From: Macrostomum lignano
Lineage: Eukaryota
DNA: 64,000 nucleotides
Assembly: GCA_002269645.1 (NCBI GenBank)
Contig: NIVC01003539.1
Location: forward strand, 28,224-92,223
Reading direction: 5' to 3'
The notes under the pieces were generated by a model. It saw only the letters and a program-made list of their open reading frames with translations. It had not been told where the DNA came from and made no database searches. Each line of letters starts with the position of its first letter. Position 1 is the stretch's first letter. Positions 44,001 to 62,639 of this stretch are shown one piece after another. The position numbers and the translations under genes were made by a program.

Positions 44001-44289
44001 ACGACTTGATTGAAATTGCGTAACCATATTGCTAACTCGAAGTGAGACTGATACTGGCTGACTGAGAAATTGATTATGTCATAACTTTTTACTCCAATTG
44101 ACTTGCTGTAAGAATTGAATTATAAGGGCCACAATTCATGTTCTCCAATTGAAAAGAGATAGCCCTGATGCGAACAGACTGGAATGCTAATGTAGCGACC
44201 TGGGTTCGAGTCTTAGAAGCGCAAAATAATTTTTTTATTAAAACACCTTAAAAACTAAAAAACTGCTAAACATAAAAAAAGCGCAATAG

Positions 44290-47200
44290 AAGAGCCACCA
44301 TGTCAAACCTAAAGGAGCCACCATGTCGAACATTAAAGAACCACCATGTCGAACATAAAAGAGCCACCATATCGAACATAAAAGAGTTACCATGTTAAAA
44401 ATTAAAGAGCCACCATGTCGAACATAGAAGAGCCACCATGTCGAACATAGAAGAGCCACCATGTCAAACATTAAAGAGCCACCATTTCAAACCTAAAGGA
44501 GCCACCATGTCGAAAATTAAAGAGCCACCATGTCGAACATAAAAGAGCCACCATATCAAACATAAAAGAGTTACCATGTCAAACATTAAAGAGCCACATT
44601 GTCAAGCATTAAAGACCCACCATTTCAAACCTAAAATAGTTACCATGTCAAACATTAAATAGCCACCATGTCAAACATTAAAGAGCCACCATGTCGAACA
44701 TAAAAGAGCCACCATATTAAACATAAAAGAGTTACCATGTCAAACATTAAAGAGCCACCATGTCGAACATTAAAGAGCCACCATGTCAAACATTAAAGAG
44801 CCACCATGTCGAACATTAAAGAGCCACCTTGTCAAATATTAAAGAGCCACCATTTCAAACCTAAAGAAGCCACCATGTCGAACATACAAGAGCCACCATG
44901 TCGAACATAGAAAAGCCACCATGTCAAACATTAAAGAGTCACCATGTCAAACATTAAAGAGCCACCGTTTCAAACCTAAAAGAGCCACCATGTTAAAAAT
45001 TAAAGAGCCACCATGTCAAACATAAAACAGACACCATTAAGAACATTAAAGAGCCACCATGTCAAATATAAAACAGCCACCATTTCGAAAATTAAGGAGC
45101 CACCATTTCAAAAATTTAAGAGCCGCTATGTTAAACATTAAAGGGCCACCTTGTCAAATATTAAAGAGCCACCATTTCAAACCTAAAAGAGCGACCCTGT
45201 CGAACATACAAGAGCCACCATGTCGAACATAAAAGAGCCACCATGTCGAACATACAAGAGCCACCATGTCGAACATAGAAAAGCCACCATGTCGAACATA
45301 GAAAAGCCACCATGTTAAACATTAAAGAGCCAATATTTCAAACCTAAAGGAGCCACCATGTCGAACATAAAAGAGTCACCATGTTAAAAATTAAAGAGCC
45401 ACCATGTCGAACATTAAAGAGCCACCATTTCAAACATTAAAGAGCCACCATGTCAAACATTAAAGAGCCACCGGTTCAAACCTAAAAGAGCCACCATGTC
45501 GAACATTAAAGAGCCACCATGTCAAACATAAAACAGACACCATGTCAAACATTAAAGAGCCACCATGTCAAACATTAAAGAGCCACCGGTTCAAACCTAA
45601 AAGAGCCACCATGTCGAACATTAAAAAGCCACCATGTCAAACATTAAAGAGCCACATTGTCAAACATTAAAAAGCCACCATTTCAAACCTAAAAGAGCCA
45701 CCATGTCAAACATTAAAGAGCCACCATGTCAAACATTAAAGAGCCACCTTGTCAAATATTAAAGAGCCACCATTTCAAACCTAAAGAAGCCACCATGTCG
45801 AACATACAAGAGCCACCATGTCGAACATTAAAGAGCCACCATATCAAACATAAAAGAGTTACCATGTCAAACATTAAAGAGCCACCATGTCAAACATTAA
45901 AGAGCCACCATGTCGAACATAAAAGAGCCACCATATCAAACATAAAAGAGTTACCATGTCAAACATTAAAGAGCCACCATGTCGAACATTAAAGAGCCAC
46001 CATGTCAAACATTAAAGAGCCACCTTGTCAAATATTAAAGAGCCACCATTTCAAACCTAAAAGAGCCACCATGTCGAACATTAAAGAGCCACCTTGTCAA
46101 ATATTAAAGAGCCACCATTTCAAACCTAAAGAAGCCACCATGTCGAACATACAAGAGCCACCATGTCGAACATAAAAGAGCCACCATATCAAACATAAAA
46201 GAGTTACCATGTTAAAAATTAAAGAGCCACCATGTCGAACATAAAAGAGCAACCATGTCAAACATAAAACAGACACCATTAAGAACATTAAAGAGCCACC
46301 ATGTCGAACATTAAAGAGCCACCATGTCAAATATAAAACAGCCACCATTTCGAAAATTTAAGAGCCGCCATGTTAAACATTAAAGGGCCACCTTGTCAAA
46401 TATTAAAGAGCCACCATTTCAAACCTAAAAGAGCGACCCTGTCGAACATACAAGAGCCACAATGTCGAACATAAAAGAGCAGCTATGTAGAACATAAAAG
46501 AGCCACCATGTCAAACATAAAAAAGCCACCATGTCAAACATAAAAGAGCCAACATGAAGAACATTAAAGAGCCACCATGTCGACCATTAAAAGAGCCACC
46601 ATGTCGAACATACAAGAGCCACCATGTCGAACATAGAAAAGCCACCATGTCGAACATAGAAAAGCCACCATGTTAAACATTAAAGAGCCAATATTTCAAA
46701 CCTTAAGGAGCCACCATGTCGAACATAAAAGAGTCACCATGTTAAAAATTAAAGAGCCACCATGTCGAACATTAAAGAGCCACCATGTCGAACATTAAAG
46801 AGCCACCATGTCAAACATAAAACAGACACCATGTCAAACATTAAAGAGCCACCGGTTCAAACCTAAAAGAGCCACCATGTCGAACATTAAAGAGCCACCT
46901 TGTCAAATATTAAAGAGCCACCATTTCAAACCTAAAGGAGCCACCATGTCGAACATTAAAAAGCCACCATGTCGAACATTAAAAAGCCAACATGTCAAAC
47001 ATAAAAGAGCCACCATGTCAAACCTAAAAAAGCCACCATGTCAAACATAGAAGAGCCACCATGTCAAACATAATAGAGCCACCATGTCAAACATTAAAGA
47101 GCCACCATGTCAAACATAGAAGAGCCACTATGTCAAACATAAAAGAGCCACCATGTCGAACATAAAAGAGTCACCATGTTAAAAATTAAAGAGCCACCAT

Positions 47201-47709
47201 GTCGAACATTAAAGAGCCACCATGTCGAACATTAAAGAGCCACCATGTCGAACATTAAAGAGCCACCATATCAAACATAAAAGAGTTACCATGTCAAACA
47301 TTAAAGAGCCACCATGTCGAACATTAAAGAGCCACCATATCAAACATAAAACAGACACCATGTCAAACATTAAAGAGCCACCATGTCGAACATTAAAGAG
47401 CCACCATGTCAAACATAAAACAGCCACCATTTCGAAAATTAAGGAGCCACCATTTCGAAAATTAAAGAGCCGCCATGTTAACCATTAAAGGGCCACCATG
47501 TCAAACATTAAAGAGCCACCATGTCGAACATAAAAGAGCCACCATGTCGAACATTAAAGAGCCACCATGTCAAACATTAAAGAGCCACCGGTTCAAACCT
47601 AAAAGAGCCACCGTGTCGAACATAAAAAAGTCAACATGTCAAACATAAAAGAGCCACCATGTCAAACCTAAAAAAGCCACCATGTCAAACATAGAAGAGC
47701 CACCATGTC
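44290..47709. repeat. 23-bp satellite GAGCCACCATGTCGAACATTAAA; resumes at 62436 to about 62545
   Basis: Well over 100 variant units. The register continues across the Polinton insertion. Confidence 0.97.
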
Positions 47710-47801
47710 AGTAGTATACGTTTTTTTGACACAAAGCCGATTTCCTTATGGCGAAATACATAGTAAGTACAGGCCCAAAAAAATGGCAGAGTCTGAAATT
47801 T
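47710..47801 (+). repeat. Left terminal inverted repeat (92 bp)
   Basis: Reverse complement of 62344-62435 with one mismatch. Confidence 0.97.
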
Positions 47802-48047
47802 GCCGTGCACGCAAACTAGCTTTTACGCAATGAATTAACCAATTAGCTGAATCACTTTTACGCAAACACCTGTCTATCCACCTAAATTCTATCCGCAATG
47901 AATGCAGCTAATTACAAGCCCAACCAAAATTCAATTTGACACAAAGCTTATTTCGCGTATAACTTAACGCATTTAAATTCTTCTTTTCAAGCAGTATTGT
48001 ATATTTCAACTAGATACAAACACAATTTGACGCACAAATTAGCGAGT

Positions 48048-48611
48048 TTACAAATATTGAGGCAGCACTCGTAAAACAAAATTGCGTAATTTAGCATACA
48101 AGTATCGAAACGAACCAGTGCGAATTATATTCCGTTTAAAAGCGCTTCGAATAAAACACTCTAGGTTTCCTCTGGTAGTCAACTTATGAAAAATATAAAA
48201 AATTACCCAAAATCCACAACTTCCACTCTGTGGGTCTTGGATAGCAAAGCGACTATAACACCAATTTTTCGAATTTCCACATTCTTTTCCTAGCCATTTT
48301 GCTATTCTTGGCAATGGTACTAGACCAAGAGAATCAAAATATTCACCAAGTCGTTTGCTACCGCGACCTGCTCGATGACCATAAACCCAAACGCATACCC
48401 AATGTTTTCCGGGCAGGTTGGAGACGTCAGTATTAACGATAAAAAAATAGTCTTTACCGTCTAAAGGTAAGCGTCTAAGTCCACCAACAAAGTTTTGAGG
48501 AAAAACACCAAGAAATACAACATTTAAAAAATGTGCGCACAATTTCGATACAACATTGCGAAGGAAGCGATCTGTTACACCACGATCTAGGATAGAATCA
48601 ATTACTTCCAT
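48048..48611 (-). CDS. Adenain-like cysteine maturation protease
   Basis: IVNTD...PGKHW (His), EYFDSLG (Asp), IQDPQSGSCGFW (Gln, Cys). Overlaps the MCP stop by 10 nt. Confidence 0.93.
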   Translation of the reverse strand: MEVIDSILDRGVTDRFLRNVVSKLCAHFLNVVFLGVFPQNFVGGLRRLPLDGKDYFFIVNTDVSNLPGKHWVCVWVYGHRAGRGSKRLGEYFDSLGLVPLPRIAKWLGKECGNSKNWCYSRFAIQDPQSGSCGFWVIFYIFHKLTTRGNLECFIRSAFKRNIIRTGSFRYLYAKLRNFVLRVLPQYL

Positions 48612-49924
48612 ACTGTGCCAGGAACAATGTCGCGAAGTTCAGTCAGTTGCAGTTGCTTGTCAAATATACCTCCAAATATGACGTTGTACACGGTACTAGT
48701 TGCAGCATTGAAGCGTAACTCTAGTTTTACATTTCCTTCCTTATACAGTTGCACTCCCCGTCCGACACCAGGTTCACTTCCAAGACTGAATGCAAAAATT
48801 GAGTAACCATTGGCGTAATCCAGCATATTAAATCCAATATCTCGTCCCTGTAGATAGATTCCAAGCTGTTGTAGCAAAAAATTATACTCTGTCACACAAT
48901 CATCTCCAAAGTTTGTCTGCAGCGGACGCGATGGTACCGAGTCTCCATTCACAAACACACCAATGCTGCTCACATTTGCATGCTCAAAGTTGAACGGATT
49001 TGTGTCCATGCTTCCATTGAATGCCTTGTTGCTTACGATTGCCATCAATAAAAGCCGTGGTACCCCACTAGGAAACAAATTTTCATGCGTATGGCTAGAC
49101 GATCCTCGGGGTATAGTAAACGTACCAAGGCTTAGACTTCGGTGCGGATATAATGCATTGTGACTTTTAAGTCCATGAGCATGTGCACTGATAACACTCG
49201 GCGAGGGTTGAACAAACCGCAATCGTAGTTCTGCACGCAAAAACTTGATCTCATAGTCTTTTAAAACCGCACCAGCTTCTAATGTTGACCCGCTCAGGAC
49301 AAATTTACTTTTTGCCGGTATGAGCTTGATCCGTAGTGGTGTCTTTGATAGTAGATACCGAGGCTGACGAAACAAATCCAAGAATAACGGCCCCGATACA
49401 GTGCACCGCCTATTGTTAGCAATGAGCGCCTGCCTCTTTGTTCGTCCATCGTTTTCACTTGTTGCATTCATTTTACCAGCTGTATCCTTGTAAAACCCCC
49501 ACGGCAGTAAACCAGCCTTCTGAGCTGTATGTCCATATTCCAGTAATGTAAGAAGCATAGCCTTGTATGGATACATAAAACTACCACCTTCAACTACAGT
49601 ATCGCCAATAGTAAATTGAACGTCCTCAAACAATGTTCCAATAACCAAATTATTCAAACAAACAAAATTTTTCGTTGCATCTATAGGTTCACCTTCACTA
49701 TCACTAACGCTGAAGCATACCGTGAGCACAGTTTCTTGTAGATCCAAATACAAATCGCCTGCAGGCACAACTTCAAATTCGATAGGTGATCCTTTTGTAA
49801 TACCATGTTGCGGTTGAATGTTAGTATATCGATTATCCAAAACACTAAACTGAACAGGACTTTGATCAAATAGCGACAATTCACTTTTAAGAGCAGCAAT
49901 ATCAGGTCCAAGCAAATGGTTCAT
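48602..49924 (-). CDS. Major capsid protein (double jelly-roll, Polinton hexon-like)
   Basis: 440 aa from ATG 49924. KSELSLF...P.Q...GSPIEF...DLYLDLQETVL, GPLFLDLFRQPRYL, FNGSMDTNPFNFEH and EGNVKLELRF recalled as Polinton MCP motifs. Confidence 0.88.
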   Translation of the reverse strand: MNHLLGPDIAALKSELSLFDQSPVQFSVLDNRYTNIQPQHGITKGSPIEFEVVPAGDLYLDLQETVLTVCFSVSDSEGEPIDATKNFVCLNNLVIGTLFEDVQFTIGDTVVEGGSFMYPYKAMLLTLLEYGHTAQKAGLLPWGFYKDTAGKMNATSENDGRTKRQALIANNRRCTVSGPLFLDLFRQPRYLLSKTPLRIKLIPAKSKFVLSGSTLEAGAVLKDYEIKFLRAELRLRFVQPSPSVISAHAHGLKSHNALYPHRSLSLGTFTIPRGSSSHTHENLFPSGVPRLLLMAIVSNKAFNGSMDTNPFNFEHANVSSIGVFVNGDSVPSRPLQTNFGDDCVTEYNFLLQQLGIYLQGRDIGFNMLDYANGYSIFAFSLGSEPGVGRGVQLYKEGNVKLELRFNAATSTVYNVIFGGIFDKQLQLTELRDIVPGTVWK

Positions 49925-49925
49925 G

Positions 49926-50384
49926 CTACTTTTCAAACAGACTAAAAAGTTTCTTGCTTGCAGTAGCAGTTCGACGTTTTCCTATACCACCGGTCTTCTT
50001 GCGTTTTCTTTTGTTCACGCGTCCCTTTCCACACTGTCTTGTTCGTCGTTTCTTTTGCCGTTTCTTCTTTCCTAAGCTTATAGCCACTCCACTGGTTCTT
50101 TTCCTTCGCTTTGGTCTCGAAACTGCAGTTGTATTAAACATCTCTTCGCTCGATTCTGTGTCCAAGTGACGCTTCCGACCCATACCAATTTTTGCTGTCG
50201 CACTTTTCAAATACTCCAGACCACGATCCAAGAAATCTTTCTTTGCGTTGCGTAGTACAGGATACACCAATCTGTCCGCCAAATTTGACAAAAAACCGTA
50301 ACCTTCGTAAACAGGAATGCCATATCCACCTCCACCTTCAGCAGATCTATTCGGACCAGAATAAAAAGCAAAAATAGGATCCAT
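49926..50384 (-). CDS. Basic putative virion core / DNA-condensing protein
   Basis: ATG 50384. Gly-rich GGGGYG...YEGYGFL head and a very Lys/Arg-rich C-terminus. Position between integrase and MCP. Confidence 0.7.
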   Translation of the reverse strand: MDPIFAFYSGPNRSAEGGGGYGIPVYEGYGFLSNLADRLVYPVLRNAKKDFLDRGLEYLKSATAKIGMGRKRHLDTESSEEMFNTTAVSRPKRRKRTSGVAISLGKKKRQKKRRTRQCGKGRVNKRKRKKTGGIGKRRTATASKKLFSLFEK

Positions 50385-50425
50385 TTCAACAGTCTTCTCT
50401 TCGTCATGCAATCCCAATTCATGTG

Positions 50426-51586
50426 TTACTTATACACTTTAGAAAATAGTTTAGCAGTCTTTGCGTCAAGATCATTTTCGTTTAACCACTGACTTCTTGA
50501 GATTGGCATACCTTTCCATTTTACTAGATACAGACGACTTCCATTTTTCGCTCGATCAGTTTCAATAACTTTTTCAATTTCATTAGGTGTTTCATCTGTC
50601 TCGTTTACCAACATTAGTTCCGCTTGGTTAAACCTTCCTTTCAGCACTTCAAATCCATCTTCAGGGTCCACTAATTCGTACATTGGCGGGTCTGTCAAGT
50701 GTACACGATGAATGCGATATTTTGAATTACTCCAAGTCGTAGTGTATCCTTTTTCAAATGTTCCTCGACGTCGTGTAATTCTAACCCAATCACCAACTTT
50801 AAATTTATTCTCATTCTTTTTAGTGTACGACTTCGCAAACATTTTGTCCCACAAAATTCCTTGTAAATGCGGGTCTGTCTCTACCCGTTTTGGTGTTTCT
50901 CCACTCAAGGATCGATGAGGACTAGAGTTGAAATTATCTTCCAATTGCGGTAAAATGTCAAACCATCGAGGTAAATTTTTTGCTCGAAAGTATCGTAATA
51001 GACGTTCCTTTAACGAGCGGATAAATCGTTCAGCCATGCTTGCCTTGTAATTGCTTTGGCTAACAAAAAATCGAACTCCTTCCTGTTTCAGCATTTGACG
51101 TGTAGCTCTTCCGAGAAACTCCATACCAGCATCACCTTGTAAATAAACAGGCTTAAAACCACTTCGAAAAATCTCTAGTAATACTTGACTAACTTCTGAA
51201 GGCTTCTTTGTACGCAATGGTCTTAGTCGTACAACTCTAGTAAAACAGTCGATAAGAACAAGTATGTAACGATAACCTCGATTTTCCGTCTTGTATTGAG
51301 GTAAATCTGCCAAATCGATTTGAAACTGAAACTTTGCAACTGGTGGCACACTAATTTTTGGAGTTGGAAAGTTTCGTCGTGTTTTTCGAAATAAATGATG
51401 CTCATTTGTTGATCGCACCCAATTATCAACTTCGCGCTTTGCAACTTTGTTCGTAATCTGTGGAAACTTTTTACGTACTTCACGAACAAGTATAGTCTTG
51501 TTACCACTAAATGAAGTAGGCCTGTTCAAGTTAAAAAAAGCATCCGTCAAAAATTCTTCAATTTCCTTACGCACTCGCTTCATCAT
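50426..51586 (-). CDS. RVE (DDE) integrase with C-terminal chromodomain
   Basis: FQIDLADL (D), YLQGDAGMEF (D), KASMAERFIRSLKERL (E). Chromodomain EIEKVI...YLVKWKGMP...QWLNENDL. Confidence 0.96.
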   Translation of the reverse strand: MMKRVRKEIEEFLTDAFFNLNRPTSFSGNKTILVREVRKKFPQITNKVAKREVDNWVRSTNEHHLFRKTRRNFPTPKISVPPVAKFQFQIDLADLPQYKTENRGYRYILVLIDCFTRVVRLRPLRTKKPSEVSQVLLEIFRSGFKPVYLQGDAGMEFLGRATRQMLKQEGVRFFVSQSNYKASMAERFIRSLKERLLRYFRAKNLPRWFDILPQLEDNFNSSPHRSLSGETPKRVETDPHLQGILWDKMFAKSYTKKNENKFKVGDWVRITRRRGTFEKGYTTTWSNSKYRIHRVHLTDPPMYELVDPEDGFEVLKGRFNQAELMLVNETDETPNEIEKVIETDRAKNGSRLYLVKWKGMPISRSQWLNENDLDAKTAKLFSKVYK

Positions 51587-51867
51587 CAGTTAGATTGATG
51601 CTAGTCGTTTGACAGTTGCAACAAAAGAACGAAGCCTCGATCGAATCTCCGTCAGTATCCTCGTTGTGCTCCTTTCCCAGAAACGGCACACATTCAGATT
51701 TTATGCAAAAAAACTCACAGAGACGAATCAAAAGTTTTTGGAAGATAGATGACATGGTTTGTCTTATTAAACTATATATTTTTCATAAACAAAAAATTAA
51801 CCTTTTTAAAAAGCTTATAGTGCTCGAATCAATTTTGTTAAAACGTAATCTGTAATTTTAAAACAAC

Positions 51868-52557
51868 TTAATTCAGTGTTTGATAATTTTCAAACAGACT
51901 AAGATCCTCCTTTGCAACAGTTTTTGGAGCAGACATTAGCTCGTTTCGTACATGACGCCCGATTTGGTTTGCTGCGATTCCACGTTTTCGAAGAAAGTCT
52001 AAAAATGTTTTTAGTCCACTAGGCGGTTGAGTCTCGTGTCGCTTAAGCGGTCTGTCTCGAACAACATATTCCATGAGATCTTGTATCTCGGCATCAGTCA
52101 AATTAGCCAGCATTGGTTCTGCATTCTTGTCCATGTCCGAAAATAGGTTTTGAGCGAGAGCTTCGAAACGTGGTAAAAAAACTTTAGGAATTTCCCTTGA
52201 TTCGCTGGCATATGAACTTCTTACAGTAGTCCCTTTGCGAACAAGTGACAGATTGTCCTCGTCTCCAGTGCGATAGACTTTGCGCAATTTTAAAAGTTTG
52301 TCTTCCAATCTGCTTCGTTTCAATTGAGCTGTGTAATTTGGCTCCTTTTCCATTTCCTTGTCCAAGTTATCCATTTGGTCTCTCATTTCCACCATATTTT
52401 TTGCCAGAGCATCTTGCGGTGCGTCTAAAACTTCAGTTTTTCGAGGTGTCTCAGCAGTTGGTGACGATCCTTGCTCTGCACCTTGACATGCAGATTGATA
52501 CACAGATTCAGGTACTAGATACATTCGTTGAAAACTACTACTCTCGTTAGTTCGCAT
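51868..52557 (-). CDS. Hypothetical Polinton protein (229 aa, coiled-coil-rich)
   Basis: Clean ATG-to-stop ORF in the gene array. N-terminal RMYLVPE resembles the KMxLVP starts I recall from Polinton proteins. Confidence 0.7.
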   Translation of the reverse strand: MRTNESSSFQRMYLVPESVYQSACQGAEQGSSPTAETPRKTEVLDAPQDALAKNMVEMRDQMDNLDKEMEKEPNYTAQLKRSRLEDKLLKLRKVYRTGDEDNLSLVRKGTTVRSSYASESREIPKVFLPRFEALAQNLFSDMDKNAEPMLANLTDAEIQDLMEYVVRDRPLKRHETQPPSGLKTFLDFLRKRGIAANQIGRHVRNELMSAPKTVAKEDLSLFENYQTLN

Positions 52558-52567
52558 TATATTCCTA

Positions 52568-52995
52568 CTACTTTCGTTGAATTGATCGTATTAAATTCGC
52601 TGCTCCCGCGGCGGTACCAACTACTCCAGACGTTATCCCAAGCGCAGTGCTTATAGCAGGTAGAGCGGCAATAATTGGAGCCAAAAAAGGTAAAAATCCT
52701 CCGTGTTGGACAAGTATTTTCCTTTTTGCAGTAATTGGAGTCTTCTGTTCCAAAAGCTGGCGTATATATCTGCGATGCTTCTCAAGTCGTCTTTTGTTAC
52801 AGTTACTAATTTTAATACGTCCACTAATAATATTAAACAGAAAGTCTACTAGACATCGTATCTCCGACTCTGAAAGTGTTTGTAAAAAACTTTTTCTCTG
52901 CTTTGGATGCTTTAGCCGATAAACAATTTGTAGTAAAAAAGCACACTGACACAATGAGCGAGCATTTTGTTTTCCTTTTCTGTTAGTTCGCTCAT
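52568..52995 (-). CDS. Conserved Polinton virion protein with QHGG/FLPFLAPII amphipathic tail (protein VI-like); start unresolved
   Basis: K.RK..L......I..L.D...N...G.I.I....KRRL.KH...IRQL...KRKILVQHGGFLPFL pattern. No in-frame ATG. ATG 52995 joins if the A6 run at 52935-52940 is really A7. Confidence 0.72.
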
Positions 52996-53051
52996 TCTTA
53001 CAAAACAAATTCACAAAATTTTCTATTACACAATTAATCTTTGCTTATAAA

Positions 53052-54041
53052 TTAGTCCGACCTATGTTTAAAATGCAGTACGACAACAACGTGTGCTCCC
53101 GGATCAAAATTAAACGGTTTTCCGCGCTGGTCCGATAGTCGAATCGAAATCTCGTGAATTTGTTGTCGATTTGTTTTCAAGTAGTAGGGTGTTTGCAATG
53201 CACTGCTATCGCGTATAAGTTCTCCGTTTTTCTTTTGTTGGAGTTCCACAACTCGAAGCAACGGTACTGATGTACTTCCCACTGCTTGATACTCGATTAT
53301 ATCTGTGTAACAGTACATGTAAACCGTTTTACTAGGCATCGGAGAAGGTAGCACAGCATCCAAGTAGGTTTTGTTAATGCGCCAAACACGATTTCTCAAC
53401 CAATATTGGTGTACTTTGATGTACACTTCTCCTTCCGTTTTTCGAAGATAGTCTCCATGCGAAACAAGTCGTATAGCTTCACCAGGCGATAGAACACAAT
53501 AAAAAACATAATAGTTCTCAGGTACTAGCGCTAGAGTATTGTCGAGACTTTTTATCAAATCCAAGTATGAACCATCCGGTGGTTGTACACTACCAGCGGC
53601 AGGTTTTGATAATTTTTCCGAGACAAGTCCAGAAAGTTTCTTCCAAGAGTCAAATTTGAAAGCGTCCATAAATGTAACTGGTAGTTCTAATCCAATAGTT
53701 TTTTCGCCTGAATTTCGTAAAAGCCAGGCAAATTTTTCATCTGTACCAGACGGTTGCCAGGAAACGTAAGCATCCAAGTCTGCCTCTGCCCAAACACGAC
53801 CCCAATAGTTTTTCTTTAATCGTATTATTGAGTCAATGTCCGCAAAATATGGAACTTCAAATCGACGCTCACGATGAGCATTTGGCGTCGTAATTGCTCC
53901 ATGGCACAGTAATTCAACTAGTGCAACCTCGAAGAATCCGTTCAATAAATTTATTGGTTCAGTTAGTCGCACTCGAAATTCATTAGGCGAGTTGGTTTCG
54001 TAACTGATATCGTTTGACGGCAAAAAAACGTAAAAACTCAT
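53052..54041 (-). CDS. Minor capsid protein (penton, single jelly-roll)
   Basis: ATG 54041. FYVFLPSN...NSPNEFRVRL..PINL..GFFEVALVE and C-terminal YCYTDIIEYQAVG...PLLR...ISIRLSDQRG.PF.F...VVLHFK. Confidence 0.87.
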   Translation of the reverse strand: MSFYVFLPSNDISYETNSPNEFRVRLTEPINLLNGFFEVALVELLCHGAITTPNAHRERRFEVPYFADIDSIIRLKKNYWGRVWAEADLDAYVSWQPSGTDEKFAWLLRNSGEKTIGLELPVTFMDAFKFDSWKKLSGLVSEKLSKPAAGSVQPPDGSYLDLIKSLDNTLALVPENYYVFYCVLSPGEAIRLVSHGDYLRKTEGEVYIKVHQYWLRNRVWRINKTYLDAVLPSPMPSKTVYMYCYTDIIEYQAVGSTSVPLLRVVELQQKKNGELIRDSSALQTPYYLKTNRQQIHEISIRLSDQRGKPFNFDPGAHVVVVLHFKHRSD

Positions 54042-54098
54042 TTTGAAATAAAACACAAACTAATATTGACAACAGTTTATAATTTGCTTATAATAATA

Positions 54099-54788
54099 TT
54101 ACACAAACTTTGCATCACATTCACGAGTATAGACAACTTGTTCATCACCAGAAAATATTCCTGTTCTCAATCGTAAAAAATCTGGTGTCACTTGCCGCAG
54201 GTCAATGAATAAATATGAAAAAGGTTTGTTATTTGTTGCGTCTTCATACACATTCACTAGAAACCTACTATTACGCGGATACATTTGTCGACCGAGATGT
54301 TCAACTGTGGTTCGATCGCGCACACTACGAGTTAGACAAATATAACTAGCTGATAAACTTCGCATGCGTGCTTCTGGATCAGACTTGTTAAAAAGACCTT
54401 GACAAAGGTACAGACAAGTCAAAGGGATATGATGCGCATGCTTTGTAAACATACTAGTAAATTCTGGCAACTTAGCAATCTCGCTTTGCAAGTCGTCAAC
54501 AACAACCAAATCGTGTGGTAAAAAACGATTAATCATCTGTGGTGTGAATTCGGGTACAAAAACAATAGGGTCAAGACCGCTTTTTTGCCAGCATGTTCTA
54601 ATTCGTTGTTGATCGTCTGGTTTCAAACTTGATCCATGGCACCAAACAAGACGGCACGGTTTTTTATCAAATAATTCTTTTCGTTCAGTCAACAAACGCA
54701 ACGTCCATTCAGTTTTACCCGAGTTTGAAGGTCCAGCAATAATAAATGTAGAATCGTGAGCTAGTTGCATATTGTATGGCTGCTGCAT
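54099..54788 (-). CDS. A32/FtsK-like genome-packaging ATPase
   Basis: ATG 54788. Walker A AGPSNSGKT, Walker B LVVVDD, HH..LTCLYLCQ, KPFSYLFIDL. Confidence 0.93.
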   Translation of the reverse strand: MQQPYNMQLAHDSTFIIAGPSNSGKTEWTLRLLTERKELFDKKPCRLVWCHGSSLKPDDQQRIRTCWQKSGLDPIVFVPEFTPQMINRFLPHDLVVVDDLQSEIAKLPEFTSMFTKHAHHIPLTCLYLCQGLFNKSDPEARMRSLSASYICLTRSVRDRTTVEHLGRQMYPRNSRFLVNVYEDATNNKPFSYLFIDLRQVTPDFLRLRTGIFSGDEQVVYTRECDAKFV

Positions 54789-54790
54789 TT

Positions 54791-55234
54791 TCAAGCACCA
54801 AAGCGTTGCTTAACTTGCATAACCTTGGTAACCAACTTCGCAGCTAGTTTTTCTTTCCAACCAGTAGACGGATCGTGGGCAATCTCTCGTGCACCAGATT
54901 CTAATAGCTTATCAGCTTTTAACCTCTCTTGCACGTCAGAATTTTTATCATAGGCCACGTCGTGAAGCATGCACAAATTGTCAAGCCGATTAATTCCTCG
55001 TTGTCCTTTTGCTAGCCTAGCTTGCAGTTGCGTACCTGGACCACAAAACTGATATCCGCCGGGTAAATGTGCTTCAAATGGTAAATGATTAATTAACCAA
55101 TTTACGACACCATAACCTTGTTGCTTTTTATTAATCTTTCTAATAGATTTCTTCTTTTTACGAATGCTCTTCTTTTTCTTTTTAAAACCTCGATCTTTCG
55201 CTGGAGACATTTTTACAACATATATTTTAGGCAT
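54791..55234 (-). CDS. Parvovirus-type phospholipase A2 domain virion protein
   Basis: Ca-loop GYQFCGPGT and catalytic NRLDNLCMLHDVAYD. Basic N-terminus followed by QQGYG. Confidence 0.9.
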   Translation of the reverse strand: MPKIYVVKMSPAKDRGFKKKKKSIRKKKKSIRKINKKQQGYGVVNWLINHLPFEAHLPGGYQFCGPGTQLQARLAKGQRGINRLDNLCMLHDVAYDKNSDVQERLKADKLLESGAREIAHDPSTGWKEKLAAKLVTKVMQVKQRFGA

Positions 55235-55325
55235 AAATTTTTAAAATTGCTTATAGTATTTACAAAGCTCTCGCATAGTGCACCAATCACCAAAGAAAAA
55301 AATCAGTTTATTATTATTATTATAC

Positions 55326-55808
55326 TTATTGGCCAGTGCTGCCAAAGCCGCCAAAGCCGCGCCGCTTGGTCGGCGGCTCAATCATCCGAATCGAATTGTC
55401 TGCTTCAGTCACATAGACTGAAGCAAGCACGGCCTGCTCCAGAACCAGTTGTGCAATACTGAGCCCGGCATAGTACTCAAAGTCTTCCGGACTGTAATTA
55501 AACAAGACTATACAGATTTCACCAGTATAGTCGGGGTCGATTACGCCACCGCCAACAAATAAGCTGTGCAGAGCCATGCTGGAACGTCCCGCTATCCTGC
55601 CATAGGTACCAGGCGGTAAGCGAATTTTGAGTCCGGTTCGCACACTCCGGGACTCGTAGGCCGGAATGGTACCATCGACGCCAGCGCAAAGATCATACCC
55701 GATCGACCCGACAGTTTTTCGGGTCGGAATCGTTGCCGAATCGTATAGACGTTCAACTAAAAGCTTACGATCAGTTAGTTGTTGTTGCTGCTGCTGCTCG
55801 GGATTCAT
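55326..55808 (-). CDS. dut: Trimeric dUTPase
   Basis: All five motifs present: GYDL, GRSS, GVIDPDYTGE, AQLVL, RGFGGFGSTG. ATG at 55808. Confidence 0.96.
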   Translation of the reverse strand: MNPEQQQQQQLTDRKLLVERLYDSATIPTRKTVGSIGYDLCAGVDGTIPAYESRSVRTGLKIRLPPGTYGRIAGRSSMALHSLFVGGGVIDPDYTGEICIVLFNYSPEDFEYYAGLSIAQLVLEQAVLASVYVTEADNSIRMIEPPTKRRGFGGFGSTGQ

Positions 55809-56132
55809 GTCGATTCTTGTAGCTGAAAGTTTAAAAAAAAGTTTTTTTTCTTGAAACATGAACGATAGCACTACATTTACGTCTACTACAAACACAAGCT
55901 TAGTCTTGAGAATCTAACTATAAAAAATATACTTTTTCAAATAATTAAACACAAAAAAGTGCTAAAATTATAATTTAAACGAATGCCGGTATCATTTATT
56001 TATTGTAAATAATGATCAATGAAAAAATTAATGATGGGTTACAGTCTTCTATAGCATGCTATTACTTTGTACAACAAAAGAGATCAGAGCATATTGTTAA
56101 TTAATTAGCCAAGTGCCAGTGTCCAAAGGGTA

Positions 56133-56431
56133 GCGAATTAATTGAACTTGTCCAGGATCGCTTCGTATCGAAGAAGCTTAGTGCAAGTTTTCTTTGTTGC
56201 ATCAAAAAAAACTTTCTGTTTTCGAGAACGAATGGACTGTATGCGCGAAAACACAAGTTGTCGCTTGTGTAAGACTCTTAAATAGTCTTGATGCTTTAAA
56301 CTGCTCTGTGCGGCTTTAGAAGCAGTACTGCTCCAGCTTTGCGACCGATTGAGACTGGAACTTTAAACGATTGCTGCTTAACCAGACCGGACCGGACTGG
56401 ACCGGACCGGACTGGACCGGACTCCCCGCGC

Positions 56432-56463
<32 letters not shown>

Positions 56464-57177
56464 ACCACCACCACCGCCGCCACCACCACCACTGCCGCCG
56501 CCCGCCCCCACACCACCGTGGGACGTATTTGTTGACAGTGTGCTTGCATGGCTTTTGCGATAAACGCAGAGCATCAAGTCTAGCTGCTCGATTGCTCTAT
56601 ATTGCCAATTACTACCTCGAGATTGAAAATTGTCAATTTTTATTAACAACTGATTAATAACGCGTGCGAACCAGTCATTGTAGGCCTCGGGAGATAACAG
56701 CATGTCACTGTTTGTAATCGTCTCATCAAATGATATTGTCGCAATGTTGGTATTAAAATAGACCGAAATGATCTCTTCGCTGCTCGAGCCATCGTTGTCG
56801 TCTGCTGCTGTTTTCGGTCGAAATAGTGTCACTTTCAAGTGAAAGCAGACTCTTATTAATAAACTGGGTGAGCCAATTTTTTCCAATATTTTAAATATTG
56901 GTTCTCTTAAAGACGCAATCAACTCGCCAGGAAGTAACTCGCCAGAGCTGTTGCCTTGTTGTTCAAGAGTGGGAGTAAATTCGACAAAATTTACCCGACC
57001 ACGATGAGCTGACTCGCGCAAAGCGATGGACCACCCATCTGGTGGGTTTTCGATCAGGTTTTGCAGCGATCCGGTCAGTAATCGTTGCGGTGAAAAACAA
57101 GCACCATGCGAGTGAGCATGCAGCTCGGCTTGATTACTGAACTTTTTTCTGCAGATTTGGCATTGTGCACGCGGCAT
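56133..57177 (-). pseudogene. Remnant of protein-primed PolB: C2H2 finger plus N-terminal domain, low-complexity junction, then a C-terminal-like fragment in another frame
   Basis: CQICRKKF...LHAHSH. YFNT...IDNFQSRGSNWQYRAIEQLDL resembles the GSGW region of Polinton PolB N-termini. After the (CCG/CCA)n-(GGACC)n patch, another frame reads LKHQDYLRVL...IQSIRSRKQKVF (about 56330-56133). No exonuclease or palm motifs anywhere in the element. Confidence 0.6.
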
Positions 57178-57400
57178 TGTGTGCACCTAGCTCGACAACG
57201 AGCGTATCGAGCATAATATTAATAGATGATCCGGTTTGTCATTTGCGGCTGTAAGAAAAATGATGATTTGGTTAGTTATAGGTATAGCTGACACGTTTAC
57301 TATTAGAGAAAACAATTGGTAAATAAATAAAAAAAGACAAAATGTTTGTAAAAGAATGCATCGCAACTGCGATTTGACAGCAATTGTTTACTTGTTAAGT

Positions 57401-57958
57401 TTAGTTATTAACAGAGATTAAAAAATCCTTGACATGGTTAAGAATATTATTCAATTCATGAGTGTTTTGAACGCCCATAATAACAAACTTTTTCGAAAAA
57501 AATATGTTACAAAAAAGCCTTGGTTTTGATGCTGATCTAACAGAAACTGCTTGTGGGAAATTTTCTGCATCGTATCCAACCAGATAATTCGAATAGTAGC
57601 CTGCATATCTTTTTAGACTAGAGAAACCGAATTTTGGCCAAAGATGACCAATAAAGCCGACATAGGTACTGCTCTGAATTTTTACTGAATCAAAATCTAC
57701 ACAATTAATAGTGTCGTTGATAAATCGTAAAACTGAGACTATCTGAGAATTTGATTTACAGCCATATATAGTTAGTTTTCCTGCTGGATAAAGTTGGATT
57801 TTAGCATTTGAATAAATTGTCTTTAGCATTGTTGGTCGGCTTAGGAATAGTTTGCAAAACCGGTTTCTGGTCTGTAGCTTCTGTTTGGTCTGCTTTAAAT
57901 CAAATTTTTCAAACGGGTGCAGCTTCAGACTCGCAGTAACTATTAATAGGACAAGTCG
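57401..57958 (-). CDS. TATA-binding-protein-like factor (about 185 aa open frame after a splice acceptor; first ATG only at 57829)
   Basis: Two TBP repeats: LIVTASL...FDLK...NRFCK...AKIQLYPAGKLTIYGCKS and KIQSSTY...YDAENFPQAV...KPRLFCNIFFSKKFVIMG. Compare TBP TALIFSSGKMVCTGAKS, KIQNMVG, YEPELFPGL and KPRIVLLIFVSGKVVLTG. Confidence 0.8.
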   Translation of the reverse strand, partial: RLVLLIVTASLKLHPFEKFDLKQTKQKLQTRNRFCKLFLSRPTMLKTIYSNAKIQLYPAGKLTIYGCKSNSQIVSVLRFINDTINCVDFDSVKIQSSTYVGFIGHLWPKFGFSSLKRYAGYYSNYLVGYDAENFPQAVSVRSASKPRLFCNIFFSKKFVIMGVQNTHELNNILNHVKDFLISVNN

Positions 57959-58168
57959 CTAAAACGGAAAATAAATAATAAGAAAAGTTAAACATGACTA
58001 TACTATCGTAAATTCTAATATTAAATTACAAAACCTGGTTAGCGTACAAGGAGTAGCAAAAAATGTTTTGAGCTTTTCCCTAAAAAATAATATTTCCCTA
58101 GCCAAAAATTTGATAAATATAGTGGAATAAGTTAGTTAAAACTTGGATAAAATTAGTCAAAAATTTTG

Positions 58169-59366
58169 TTACTCATCATCAGAGCTGCTGTACGAGTCGT
58201 CCGATGAAGACACGCTAGCTGTAGTAGCGTCCGCAGCAGCACGCTTTAAAAATGCTGTCTCCTTGGACGCTACCCTGGTTCCAGAGGCAGGTGTACTCAC
58301 CAAGATCTTTGCTGGTGGAGCCTCCACCCAGTCTGTGCCATCTGCACCAGCTTCGGCAGAATTGTTTTGCTGTTTTGCACCGCTGCGTTTTCGAACTTGC
58401 TTTTTAGGCGGCGGTTCAATAGAGGCTGGCGCTGCATTCGATGTAGTCGACTTCTTCGATACGGTGGTGGTAGACCGACGCTTTGCAGGTGACTTGGCAG
58501 GTGTCACCTGGCTTGAATTCTGCAGGCTTTGTTCATTTGCTTCTTCTTGCTCACAGGTAGATGTTGGGGACGGACTCCTGCTTCTAATTGCTGACTTGGT
58601 CGCGGGTAGGTGTGCAAGCACTCCCTTGAACATGTCGAGGCGCTGCAACATGTTGTCGGAAGATTCTATGAGTGTCAGAGAGCGCACAGCGAATGTAATG
58701 CGCCAGACGAGGCAGCCTTTTGGACAATACAAGCTCGTTGCTTGCACTGTCATTTGGTAGGTACCGCTGACACCTTTGAAATCGGAAATGGACACCTCCT
58801 TCCCGTGTGGATGATCGTTGCTGATCCTGATTGTGGCACAAGGGTAAGCAGGCTTTATAGCCAGCCATTGTTGAGGCACAAACTCGAGGACGTCGTTAGC
58901 ATGCTGATGAGCTGGTTTTGTTAGTCGTGCCAAGGGTCGAGCATCTTGAATCTCGTTCAACTTGACCGATAGACCTTTTTCGACTTGACTGCAAAACATT
59001 ATATAAATTATGAATATAGTTTCCTAAAATTAATTGTATAAATTTAATATGGTGCTCACCGGAGAGAGTGGAAGAGTTCCTTATCGCAGCTGTCTGGATG
59101 AAATTGGACACTTACTGCGTCGCGAGAGTCGTGTCTGCAAGACGGATGATCGAGCTCTGGCCTTTCTGCGATTCCACGAAAAAGCTCCATTGGAGCCTTG
59201 GTTTGCAATATAATTGGGTACCATTTTGTACACTCGATTGATGGTTTCCACGCAATAGATCGAAACTGGCAGGACGAACCAGTCGTGGTTGTAGACTGCT
59301 CTCCAACGTAAAAATCGGACTCGAGTCGGAGCGTACAATTGACTCCGTCTTGATGCAAGCTGCCAT
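58169..59366 (-). CDS. Spliced gene, probable OB-fold single-stranded DNA-binding protein with acidic tail
   Basis: 71-nt GT-AG intron 59059-58989 joins ORF 59056-59379 in frame to ORF 58169-58999 (CG/T = Arg). PIILQTKAPMELFRGI resembles the T7-like viral SSB motif. Ends SSSDDSYSSSDDE. ATG 59366 needs one extra base at the 59310-59314 run. Confidence 0.6.
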
Positions 59367-60059
59367 GTCTTACAAGCAATTGAATATAGTATTTCTTTTG
59401 CTGTAATGATTGAGCTCATGAAAAATTGACCATTTCGGGTCTTGTATTTATAGCAAGCTTTGCATGCTGTTTGTGAACTAGTAAACAAATTTAATTGTTG
59501 CGTGCTGATTAAGACATTGTTGCGTGCCAAAGGTGGCATAAGTTTCTAGGGTGGGTTGCATGATTAGGTCTAATTTTACGCAAATGTAGGTTGATATTTT
59601 ATACAATAAAATTAATGAATCTTAGGCACACTAGTTATAAATTTGCAAGAGTAACACGATGGCAAGCGTTTAATAAGAAGACTGCTGGTTGCTGCTTCAT
59701 TAGATTGGTTTTGTTCTCAAGTAGAATGTAATTAAAATATTTTGCGACTTGAAAAATTAGCAATCTTGGATTTTAGAGTAAAAATAAGCTGCACGCGGTG
59801 CTATGAAATTAATTTATTGAAAGTTTTGCTTGCATGTTGGAATTTTTTAGCTCGCACGGTGACAAGAGATTGCTTGAGTAACCTATATATAGAGTGTTAC
59901 TTTTCAAACAGAAAAAGGTATAGTTGTAACTCAGCTTTTGCAGTCCTATATTGAGCAGAAGCTATATAGAGTTACACTATCATGCTGCGACGCGCAGCTT
60001 GTTGGGACTATAATGACTGCCGCTGCTATAACCGCATGCAGTCAGTGCAGTTGACACAC

Positions 60060-60770
60060 AAATGCTGTTTGGACTAAGCTAAATTACTGTGTTGAGACAG
60101 TTAAGCTGGACCACGGCTAAATCACTATTGATACGGTTAATTGCTACTAGACCCATGGCTAAATCACTGTACGTTGAGACGGTTAAGCTGGACCACGACT
60201 AAATCGCTGTACGTTGAGACGGTGGTTAAGCTGGACCATGGTTATAAAACTGGACGGGTGGTTAAGCTGGACGACTACAGCTAAAATTACTGTTGAGTCA
60301 GTTATGCTAGACCACAGCAGCCAAATCACAGTTGAGGTAAAGCTGACCATAGCTAATTCTCACTGTTGAGACGGGTGCTGCTGCTTGGCTCACAGCTAAA
60401 TAACTGGACAGTTAAGCTAATCGGACTACAGCTAAATCCCTGTTGAGACAGTTGCCTGGACCACAGCTAAAATCACTGTTGAGGCAGTTAAGTCTGGACA
60501 ACAGCTAAAATTACTGTTGAGACAGTTAAGCCTTGACTATAGCTAAATCATCGTTGAGGTAGTTAAGCCTGGACTATAGCTAAATCACTGTTGATGCAGT
60601 TTTAAGCTAGACCACAGCTAAATCATACTGCTGAGGCAAAAAAGCCGGACCACGGCTAAAAACTGTTGAGGCAAAAGCTGGACCACAGCTAAATCATACT
60701 GTTGAGGCAAAAGCTGGACCACAGCTAAATCATACTGTTGAGGCAAAAGCCAGACCATGGCTAAAGAAAC
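60060..60770. repeat. Array of about 18 diverged 34-42-bp units with an internal palindrome
   Basis: Consensus CTGTTGAGRCAGTTAAGCTGGACCACAGCTAAATCA containing AGCTG-N5-CAGCT. Confidence 0.9.
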
Positions 60771-60927
60771 GTATGAAAAAAAAATTATTTGCATGGATTA
60801 ATAATTTTTGTTTAATGATGACTGTACAAGATATTGACTTTATATTGAATTAAATAATTTCAATAAATGGCGAATAAAATTGAAAGAATTTTTTAGAATA
60901 ATGAATTTATAGAGATTATATTATTGA

Positions 60928-61566
60928 TTACAGACTTGTTTGATATATACTAAAAGAGCAATTACTTGGACACATTGCTGGCAAAATTTTATGAAGAGTT
61001 AGAAAAAATGTCTTTTTAAGATAGGTCCCAATATTCAAATACTTGAGTTGTATTACAGGTCTTTGTAATTCTACTTGGTAGAAGCCTGTGCTCATTTGAG
61101 AGACTTTTACAGACTTGATGTCCTTCTGTACAATAATTGGCGAGTTTAGCAGCGGTTGAACTTGGGTAGAAATAGCAATTGATGATGATGGTGTTTCAGT
61201 TGCTGTCGTTGGTTTGGTACTTGTAGGCTTACTGCAAGTTTGCTTTGTTGGGTCATTGTAGCTGGTTGGTGATGGTGGTGGTGGTGCATACTGCAGTTGG
61301 TCAGTTGGTCGTGGGTTCGATTGCTGCCTAATTGACTGAATAACATCAGTTCTTGTGTAAATGCGATCTAGCTCAGTTGTCTGTCTCTCGACATGAATCG
61401 AGGTTACTCTGGCGAGAGATGTAGAATATGATGCTCTTGCAGCAGAATTGGATGTGGTGGTGTCGTGGCAAATGCGTTTGCACTGATCTGGAGGTGGCCG
61501 CGTGAAGAAACCATTCTTGAATGCTATAATAATGGATAAGATGAGGGAAATTTGGTATAGGTGCAT
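60928..61566 (-). CDS. Orphan 212-aa protein with signal-peptide-like N-terminus and Thr/Pro/Ser-rich middle
   Basis: MHLYQISLILSIIIAF, CKRIC, PPPP/TKPTT-rich stretch and CPSNC. Clean ORF on the same strand as all element genes. Confidence 0.55.
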   Translation of the reverse strand: MHLYQISLILSIIIAFKNGFFTRPPPDQCKRICHDTTTSNSAARASYSTSLARVTSIHVERQTTELDRIYTRTDVIQSIRQQSNPRPTDQLQYAPPPPSPTSYNDPTKQTCSKPTSTKPTTATETPSSSIAISTQVQPLLNSPIIVQKDIKSVKVSQMSTGFYQVELQRPVIQLKYLNIGTYLKKTFFLTLHKILPAMCPSNCSFSIYQTSL

Positions 61567-61584
61567 GTATACAATGTATATAGA

Positions 61585-61810
61585 AACTGAACTAGCAGAG
61601 AATCAGTCTAAACAGAAACCGAACTAGCAGACAATCAATCTAGAAATTCTGAACTAGCAGAGTATTAGTCTAAACAGAAACCGAACTAGCAGAAAATCAA
61701 TCTAGAGACTGAACAAACAGAGGATCGGTCTAAACAGAAACCGAACTAACAATCAATCTAGAAACTAAACTATAGCGAACAGTCAATCTAAAAAAGAAAA
61801 CTGAACTAGA
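61585..61810. repeat. About 30-bp degenerate tandem repeat upstream of the orphan ORF
   Basis: AACTAGCAGA.AATCA.TCTA units. A GTAAGA donor-like site lies just upstream on the minus strand (about 61828). Confidence 0.75.
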
Positions 61811-62343
61811 GTAGGTGATTATCTTACCTTGTTTAACATAGCGCTCGGCCAATTCCTGCTGACGTGATCGCTTCATTTCACTTAAGATGTAAGTATAGTT
61901 GAACAAGTAGTATAATGTAAACTTGGTTTAAGTTATTTAATATTTTCTGTGTCAGTGTGTTCGTATATATATATAGTATAAAGAAGAAGCATGTTGACGC
62001 AGTTGTTGACATAGTATCTGTAAACCATCTGCTCAAGTTGGTGCAAAAATTCTATAGGCACTCAAGAATAGATCATTTACTATCTTTCTTCAAAAGGGTG
62101 ATAATATTCACAAGTTTTCAATATTTCAAAAACACTTGAAATGTGTGAATAGCTTTGGAGTAAATTTGTCTTGAATGGAATCCTTTGAAGTGTGTTTGTG
62201 TCACCATTGCTAGAATCGGTTACTTGTATTTTGGACAGGTGGATATGCAATTCGTCTGAATAATCACGTTGCGTAAAAGATATTTAGCGTGCACTTGGAA
62301 TTTCAGACTGCGTGCACATGGAATTTCAGACTGCGTGCACATG

Positions 62344-62435
62344 AAATTTCGGACTCTGCCATTTTTTTGGGCCTGTACTTACTATGTATTTCGCCATAAG
62401 GAAATCGGCTTTGTGTCAAAAAAACGTATACTACT
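62344..62435 (-). repeat. Right terminal inverted repeat (92 bp), preceded by extra copies of a 23-bp unit (62296-62343)
   Basis: Ends ...AAAACGTATACTACT. Subterminal TGGAATTTCAGACTGCGTGCACA is repeated. Confidence 0.97.
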
Positions 62436-62639
62436 CATGTCGAACATAAAAGAGCCACTATGTCAAACATAAAAGAGCCACCATGTCAAACATAGAAGAG
62501 CCACTATGTCAAACATAAAAGAGCCACCATGTCAAACATTCAAGATATCCAATTTCAAATGTAAAGGTATAAAGCGCCATGCCAATTTAAAGGAGCCACT
62601 ATAAAGCTAAGGAAATTGTCGCTCTAGCTACTTATTGTC

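Follow-up and report, generated by a model that had tools for sequence, protein, structure and literature searches.

The locus studied here raises the question of what a Polinton would do with a TATA-binding protein (TBP) of its own, and on which promoters such a protein might act. The window, i.e. the whole 64,000-nucleotide stretch analysed from Macrostomum lignano (contig NIVC01003539.1, positions 28,224 to 92,223), contains an open frame with TBP-like repeats. A first-pass annotation, made from the letters alone, had assigned this frame to a Polinton-like provirus and had suggested a divergent TATA specificity that could redirect host Pol II to element promoters. In this study, the element, the fold and relatives of the protein, its start codon and the DNA ahead of the neighbouring genes were investigated computationally. 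Our reading of the sequences is that the window TBP is probably the late-transcription factor of a nuclear Polinton (adintovirus-type) virus with a trans-spliced early cassette.

The element and its genes

The TBP gene lies in a Polinton of 14,726 bp (47710-62435; Table 1) whose 104-nt terminal inverted repeats start AGTAGT and which is flanked by a target duplication of 6 bp. Both features, (AGT)2-ended terminal repeats and a duplicated target of this length, are described for the ends of Mavericks (PMC8097293). A 23-bp satellite array surrounds the element, at 44286-47710 (149 copies, left) and 62436-62559. The genes follow one another on a single strand in the order SSB-like gene, TBP, polymerase B, dUTPase, phospholipase A2 (PLA2), ATPase, minor capsid, pX-like gene, 229-aa gene, integrase, basic gene, major capsid and protease. 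Pfam cut-offs were passed by the integrase, dUTPase, PLA2 and pX matches, and the ATPase and protease matched the right families weakly; Pox_A32 was found, below cut-off, in 3 of 8 aligned homologues of the packaging ATPase. The major capsid frame had no Pfam or PDB sequence match, and the capsid labels are putative, based on position and homologues; the label of the minor-capsid gene is drawn from its position. The two-exon gene upstream of TBP probably encodes a single-strand DNA-binding protein (SSB); its ESM-atlas lead was DUF2738-like (0.94), and the fold model of exon 2 alone reached a pLDDT of 44 with a best Z of 2.7. Joining of its intron was recorded in three of four runs presumed to be RNA. 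Internal tandem repeats of 23-75 bp occur at the early end of the element (60078-60765, 61581-61772 and 62287-62355), a possible origin or enhancer region.

The provirus assignment held in that the element is a Polinton; the polymerase frame of this copy is truncated and stops after 293 codons. The deletion is common to 26 of the 30 fetched loci, and sister copies retain the polymerase domain, so that a protein-primed polymerase B is present at the family level (DNA_pol_B_2, 1.2e-19, in a sister copy). The polymerase-deleted subfamily (the window and L001-L030) has the same junction in 26/30 loci, is about 99% identical, keeps the TBP, integrase and morphogenesis genes, and is widely spread in the genome; it looks like a helper-dependent derivative.

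Table 1. Coordinates of features of the Polinton in the window.
Feature	Position	Strand	Remarks
6-bp target duplication (47704-47709) and left terminal inverted repeat	47704..47813	+	repeat starts AGTAGT
Adenovirus-type protease	48048..48611	-	Peptidase_C5 0.035, below cut-off
Major capsid protein (putative label)	48602..49924	-	113 homologues, including fish, sea cucumber and spider genome proteins
Candidate box TATAAG(G) inside capsid gene, before protease	48740..48745	-	weakest box; absent in families C and D
Candidate box TATAAG(C) inside 152-aa gene, 158 nt before major capsid gene	50077..50082	-	
rve integrase with chromodomain	50426..51586	-	Pfam rve 4.5e-8, Chromo 1e-6
Candidate box TATAAG over integrase end, 50 nt before basic 152-aa gene	50429..50434	-	
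Candidate box TATAAG(C) before small ORF and integrase	51814..51819	-	
Adenovirus pX-like gene	52568..53044	-	PF05829 2.9e-6; 5' end out of frame in this copy
Candidate box TATAAG(C) before 229-aa gene	52650..52655	-	family A only
Candidate box TATAAG(C) before adenovirus pX-like gene	53044..53049	-	
Minor-capsid-like gene	53052..54041	-	conserved in families A-E; no Pfam match
Candidate box TATAAG(C), 51 nt before minor-capsid-like gene	54087..54092	-	
Packaging ATPase	54099..54788	-	Walker A motif in frame
Phospholipase A2-like protein	54791..55234	-	Pfam PF08398 3.4e-9
Candidate box TATAAG(C) before phospholipase A2 gene	55250..55255	-	
dUTPase	55326..55859	-	Pfam 1.5e-29
Polymerase B (protein-primed), N-terminal part	56296..57177	-	about 3 kb absent in this subfamily
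Trans-splice acceptor of polymerase transcript	57249..57265	-	spliced-leader letters on one X7 contig
TBP coding exon	57401..57958	-	185 codons, without own start codon; Pfam, AlphaFold, Foldseek, selection
Polypyrimidine tract and AG, candidate spliced-leader acceptor	57959..57985	-	abuts TBP codon 1, phase 0
Two-exon gene upstream of TBP	58169..59366	-	intron 59059-58989; exon 1 out of frame in this copy
Right terminal inverted repeat and 6-bp target duplication (62436-62441)	62332..62441	-	

Matches to the window TBP numbered 84 in the genome, 22 of them full length at 100%. Five more families (B1, B2, C, D and E) share 39-46% protein identity with the window TBP, whose own family is named A. 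Gene order is the same in the sister families, which have a deoxynucleoside kinase gene between the TBP and polymerase genes, a position at which the window's family has no kinase gene. TBP and kinase form one frame of 469-473 codons in family E (L040:4040-5446, L041 and L042), which may have arisen by loss of a stop and not be a functional fusion; a TBP-kinase fusion was rejected as a general property, the single frame being confined to family E and the kinase having its own Met.

Fold, contact surface and relatives of the TBP

The frame, read stop to stop from 57958 to 57401, had been reported to hold two TBP-like repeats in about 185 codons, and this description was borne out. Pfam PF00352 was matched in two stretches (E 2.2e-7, 31 bits against a cut-off of 22.9), a PDB sequence search returned TBP chains (best 3e-4), and the nearest ESM-atlas clusters were TBP (0.96). 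The structure prediction proposed in the first-pass annotation as a check gave the TBP fold: the AlphaFold model, built on a six-sequence alignment, has two TBP lobes (mean pLDDT 90.5, pTM 0.60), its best Foldseek matches are cellular TBPs (E 5e-9), and its matches among viral models (BFVD) include annotated TBPs of large DNA viruses. With two repeats and the saddle fold both present, the protein is a member of the TBP family PF00352. A single-sequence protein search with the window TBP gave 36 candidates and no significant match; a profile search of 1.84 billion representatives gave 125 matches, four of them close (below 1e-30).

Residues were mapped in yeast numbering via the host TBP, which is canonical at each mapped position. 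All motifs cited in the first-pass annotation were found in the frame, and its view that the intercalating aromatics are largely kept proved right for the C lobe only. Positions F99, F116, F190 and F207 correspond to P42, Y57, F134 and F153, so that the C-lobe pair is retained, F99 is lost and F116 is Tyr. The motif NRF (F34) was rejected as the first intercalating Phe, since F34 precedes strand 2 of the model and F99 aligns with P42. Both Asn positions are changed as had been stated (N69 to L4, N159 to S96), and the window TBP has neither the four intercalating Phe nor the two minor-groove Asn of a canonical TBP. The group I TBPs carry the replacements F99P, F116Y, L114Q (9/10), V122T, V161T and L205N, and F190, F207, R196 and E188 are retained in all ten. 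Acidic residues of the C-lobe stirrup are D130 and E132 in the window TBP, corresponding to positions E186 and E188. TFIIB binding is the role described for this stirrup (PMC7221094). Position 186 is acidic in six of six genome families and is N or S in four outside group I proteins. The DNA-contact surface of the viral TBP thus appears to be rewired from hydrophobic to polar with the TFIIB-binding acids kept. K133, K138 and K145 are lost, as is the basic N-lobe patch, the loss of which may free the viral TBP from host regulators.

The window TBP gene is under purifying selection. Nei-Gojobori dN/dS was 0.17 in all four B1-B2 pairs (dS 1.2-1.4, with silent sites at or near saturation between group I families), 0.15 between two family A copies and 0.15-0.33 in group II.

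Relatives were sought by a Pfam scan of the genome, in which 150 of 330 candidates were scored. Besides the host TBP and a TRF2-like paralogue, the scan revealed numerous copies of further element TBPs, which come from a second Polinton group, with a capsid about 30% identical, and from a third. Two more capsid families, chosen to serve as controls without TBP, proved to have TBP frames too (group IV), and TBP is present in all four capsid-gene Polinton groups sampled in this genome. Outside it, a divergent metagenomic TBP clade comprises 21 loci; 16 have integrase, protease or capsid beside TBP, and the remaining five are 1-2-kb contigs. Scans of viral contigs with the capsid protein and with one TBP clade gave no match, and two other TBP clades gave one locus each there, with cellular-like TBPs and no Polinton genes matched nearby. 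The first-pass annotation had set TBP outside the standard Polinton gene set and had suggested a search of other Polintons; the search indicated that TBP is no rarity, being carried by four genome groups and by unrelated metagenomic elements.

Further features of these groups were recorded. Group II (L089, L092, L093, L095, L096 and L098-L100) is a high-copy Polinton with an ATG-led TBP, and the gene ahead of this TBP is presumably exonuclease-like. One PC4-like gene lies near the end of the group II element L133, and an interleukin-17-like gene (Pfam 5e-8; L090:4133-4789), host or element, is close to a group II element. Groups III (L106) and IV (L127-L131) are further Polinton groups with TBP frames. 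No polymerase match was obtained in the fetched group IV stretches, which contain a candidate SSB-like gene; one copy also has a Fic-domain gene, and both copies seen have an interrupted TBP frame.

In a 64-row tree, group I formed one clade (support 99), and all element-type TBPs fell outside the cellular set on long branches (support 88). A clade of group I with the host TBP, to which the window TBP is about 22% identical, was rejected on 28 of the 64 rows (AU p=0.0009). F99P, N159T/S and V161T are common to groups I and II and the metagenomic clade, suggesting a single, old viral family. The window TBP gene, judged by these comparisons, is neither unique to the window nor a recent capture.

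Start codon and candidate promoter boxes

The first ATG of the TBP frame is codon 44, which lies mid-fold, so that the frame as printed must be incomplete. A pyrimidine tract and YAG acceptor abut the frame in phase 0 in six of six families. Between the upstream stop and this acceptor, no GT[AG]AG donor was found in any of the six, and no usable upstream ATG in five; B2 and E have no ATG at all there, and in family D a single in-frame ATG lies 33 nt ahead of the acceptor. Two outside relatives have Q at the acceptor place, which is what translation of an acceptor would produce. GC-containing motifs ahead of the TBP acceptor (L031:4420-4548, L033:4480-4564 and L040:5420-5560) are candidate E2F-like sites.

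Four runs, presumed to be RNA, were compared over 56530-60050; X7 coverage has gaps between genes, to which no weight is given here. At 57249, the AG ahead of the polymerase gene, one X7 contig runs out into 23 foreign letters, which are present at least 58 times in the genome and match the published 35-nt spliced leader of Macrostomum lignano, a leader that ends in ATG (PMC8629364). Six of eight further loci have the leader sequence followed by GTAAG (ATG|GTAAG), as in a leader gene, and the first eight loci are not leader genes; the host leader does end in ATG with a donor site after it. A genomic retrocopy was rejected as the source of the joint, since among at least 40 copies of the region there is none that starts at the acceptor or shares a contig with one of the at least 58 leader matches. 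Leader copies without a donor site and with other DNA after them were seen at L051-L058, L177 and L178, six sharing the next letters; they are probably retroposed trans-spliced RNAs of a mobile element.

The family A joint lies 71 nt before the polymerase's own ATG and therefore shows trans-splicing, not AUG donation. The polymerase ATG of A and D lies five codons ahead of the first Cys; B1, B2 and C have an acceptor CAG at precisely this place, and from these sister families we infer AUG donation. At the TBP acceptor, no joint or loose end was listed in the four presumed RNA runs; each of the four has contigs running across it unspliced, one of them by only 12 letters. The terminal AUG of the leader is very probably the TBP start codon as well, giving M-R-L-V, a start close to the register of the ATG-led TBP relatives. 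Host genes of flatworms are described to use the spliced-leader AUG as initiator methionine (PMC9851317).

TATAAG(C) is a non-canonical candidate promoter box before the morphogenesis genes in all five sister families examined. In the window, TATAAG occurs eight times in sense and once in antisense orientation in the 8.6 kb behind the polymerase, and does not occur on the sense strand of the 6.1-kb early region. Five stretches, one per family, among ten examined (42.6 kb), contain 32 sense and 3 antisense copies, against a Markov expectation with a mean of 7.3 and a maximum of 14 in 100; the boxes had first been spotted by eye in the same stretches that were later counted. TATAAGC, the top de novo 7-mer, was found 24 times in sense and never in antisense in these stretches. 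Box positions are conserved gene by gene across families, the distances being 43-54 nt to the minor capsid gene, 46-51 nt to the basic gene and 124-165 nt to the major capsid gene, and the box in the 152-aa coding DNA is kept via silent positions in six of six families.

Other lineages have other boxes, namely CTTAAGA in group II (13 sense, 0 antisense), TATAAAT(A) in group IV (13 sense, 1 antisense) and ATAAACG, ranked second de novo, in the metagenomic clade (13 sense, 0 antisense). CTTAAGA, TATAAAT and ATAAACG each occur 0-1 times on the group I sense strand, TATAAGC is absent from groups II and IV, and each lineage's box is at or below background in the other groups. This pattern suggests a separate pairing of TBP and box in every Polinton lineage; with four lineages only, TBP and box could also differ merely through lineage age. 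The group II box also precedes the group II TBP gene itself, which suggests positive feedback. The group IV box TATAAATA is canonical TATA, readable by host TBP. A small element (L135, L107 and L037) has AGTAGT near one end and integrase-like, PLA2 and RING-finger genes, with no capsid, polymerase or TBP match. It lies twice near group I copies and has TATAAG on both strands, not clearly before genes.

When TBP sits on its box, the 5' half is contacted by the C lobe and the 3' half by the N lobe; in selection experiments, wild-type yeast TBP selected no G at positions 6-7 (PMC1636458). TATAAGC retains the 5' half of TATA and has an altered 3' half, and the N lobe of the window TBP is without both Phe; this correspondence is only suggestive, because C-lobe base contacts are changed too. 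The altered TATA specificity proposed in the first-pass annotation has thereby gained changed contact residues and a candidate target, TATAAG(C), and binding and the redirection of Pol II stay conjectural.

Upstream ATGs numbered 13 per 741 positions at +6 to +24 and 14 per 2176 beyond +28 (background 0.014), by a measure biased by its stopping rule. Tolerance of ATG at +6 to +24 fits a TATA-like box with a start at least 25 nt downstream. None of 12 polymerase-B viral loci had a TBP profile match; these loci are no test of nuclear Polintons, because they are partial and most have another promoter type, an AT tract touching the ATG. One TBP-negative contig (L160) has CTTAAGA 6 times against 3. 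Eight histone H3 host loci, an uninformative host-promoter control, have no TATA within 130 nt.

Late transcription and known systems

Under the late-factor role favoured here, an early cassette composed of the SSB-like gene, TBP, (deoxynucleoside kinase) and polymerase would be transcribed by the host machinery, and its transcript would be cut into mRNAs by spliced-leader trans-splicing, of which one joint was seen, at the polymerase acceptor. The leader AUG would supply the TBP start codon. The polar-surfaced viral TBP would bind TATAAGC, a box disfavoured by ordinary TBP, and would recruit host TFIIB and Pol II through the acidic C-lobe stirrup. Transcripts would begin about 25-30 nt downstream of the box, and the capsid, packaging, protease and integrase genes would thereby be switched on. 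A wider claim, advanced tentatively and held to be nearly balanced, is that this Polinton branch has an orthogonal transcription code made of an old viral TBP, co-diverging private boxes and, here, leader-dependent starts. The TATAAGC, CTTAAGA and TATAAATA lineages in one nucleus would then not cross-activate capsid genes, and ATAAACG would serve elsewhere.

The boxes might instead be late promoters read by host TBP, TRF2 or a helper virus, with the element TBP acting otherwise, by soaking up TFIIB or bending DNA at the replication origin. Canonical TATA in group IV and the TRF2-like paralogue of the host are in line with this account, and a loss of one N-lobe Phe and a change of the other may weaken binding. 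Wild-type TBP also tolerates single box variants, to judge from structure titles that report it bound to G(-26) and C(-25) variants of the adenovirus box. However, three different boxes in three co-resident lineages would have to be attributed to a single host factor, and the changed contact residues are invariant across group I families with saturated silent sites, so that selection for a new specificity fits better than decay; we regard this account as unlikely.

Were the late role retained and the start codon taken from a cis-spliced upstream exon of the element, the cis intron or introns of the element (at least one) and the lack of leader at the TBP acceptor would be accommodated. The missing donor in all families, the absence of any ATG in B2 and E, the known donor of the upstream gene, which is of phase 2 and would not fit, and the polymerase of B1, B2 and C, which needs exactly one added codon at the ATG place, make such an exon improbable. 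A degraded processed copy of host TBP, carried passively, would suit the low identity to host TBP and the loss of key residues, but is contradicted by open frames in six families, by dN/dS well below 1, by the conserved position of the gene, by the rejected grouping with host TBP and by relatives in unrelated metagenomic Polintons. The first-pass annotation had named this possibility as one that would overturn its claim, and with dN/dS of 0.17 and AU p=0.0009 it is exceedingly improbable. A dedicated late-transcription factor remains, in our assessment, the probable role of the window TBP.

If true, a dedicated late factor with late promoters would constitute an early-to-late switch, bearing on Polintons as true viruses and offering a direct assay for an ordered Polinton life cycle, and it would be a one-protein version of the multi-protein herpesvirus late switch. 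Natural TBP/box pairs of different specificity would provide a test of the evolvability of TATA recognition and possible orthogonal Pol II promoters. A viral start codon from the host spliced leader would, if true, be a new kind of host dependence, binding the virus to hosts with an AUG-terminated leader; genes whose start codon is taken from the leader would be overlooked or shortened by gene callers. Viral TBPs in herpesviruses and large DNA viruses, and late promoters driven by herpesvirus TBP, are already known. Our searches, mainly of openly readable literature, returned no report on Polinton TBP function, lineage-specific boxes or leader dependence, nor on leader-AUG use by a Polinton. 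The label 'TBP' appears in a figure legend for MELD viruses with adintovirus-like PolB, in a text whose accessible part gives no function or promoter motif (PMC8502044), and the supplement of that paper (3,999,981 characters) contains no whole-word TBP or TATA.

Polintons, Mavericks and adintoviruses share polymerase B, integrase and PLA2 with the window element, which also has candidate ATPase, protease and capsid genes, whereas the eight conserved vertebrate Maverick genes are described without TBP, and intact vertebrate Mavericks are intronless, unlike the spliced and trans-spliced genes of the window element (PMC8097293, PMC8502044). Flatworm leader-AUG initiation is known for host mRNAs (PMC9851317), and the presumed recipients here are a viral polymerase and TBP. 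Cellular TBP and TRF2 resemble the window TBP in fold, C-lobe Phe pair, R196 and acidic stirrup, and differ from it in sequence (about 22% identity) and in most base-contacting residues; the window TBP lies outside the cellular group.

Nucleocytoviricota TBPs, to which the nearest atlas clusters and BFVD folds point, are likewise divergent and two-lobed with the basic N-lobe patch lost (PMC7221094), and are at most 17% identical to the window TBP in structural alignments. Large DNA viruses of this group carry their own RNA polymerase; no RNA polymerase gene was identified in the 15-18-kb element. Many Nucleocytoviricota encode a TFIIB homologue (PMC7221094), and none was identified in the element. 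The survey describes viral TBPs as rarely keeping host TFIIB contacts (PMC7221094); contrary to this trend, the TFIIB acids are retained in six genome families.

The closest functional parallel may be the herpesvirus vTBP (KSHV ORF24 and its beta/gamma homologues), in which a nuclear DNA virus has its own TBP fold, as here (PMC12529657). KSHV ORF24 is needed for TATTWAA late promoters, and both systems have a TATA variant before structural genes, the timing in the window element being predicted; both proteins are polar at L114, V122, V161 and L205 (PMC12529657). Herpesvirus vTBPs are large, with Pol II-binding and C-terminal DNA-binding domains and viral partners, whereas the window TBP is a bare 185-aa core for which no partner factor was identified in the element. 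Compared with the herpesvirus proteins, the window TBP keeps the TFIIB-binding acids and loses F99, and it would work like a vTBP while not being a member of that family.
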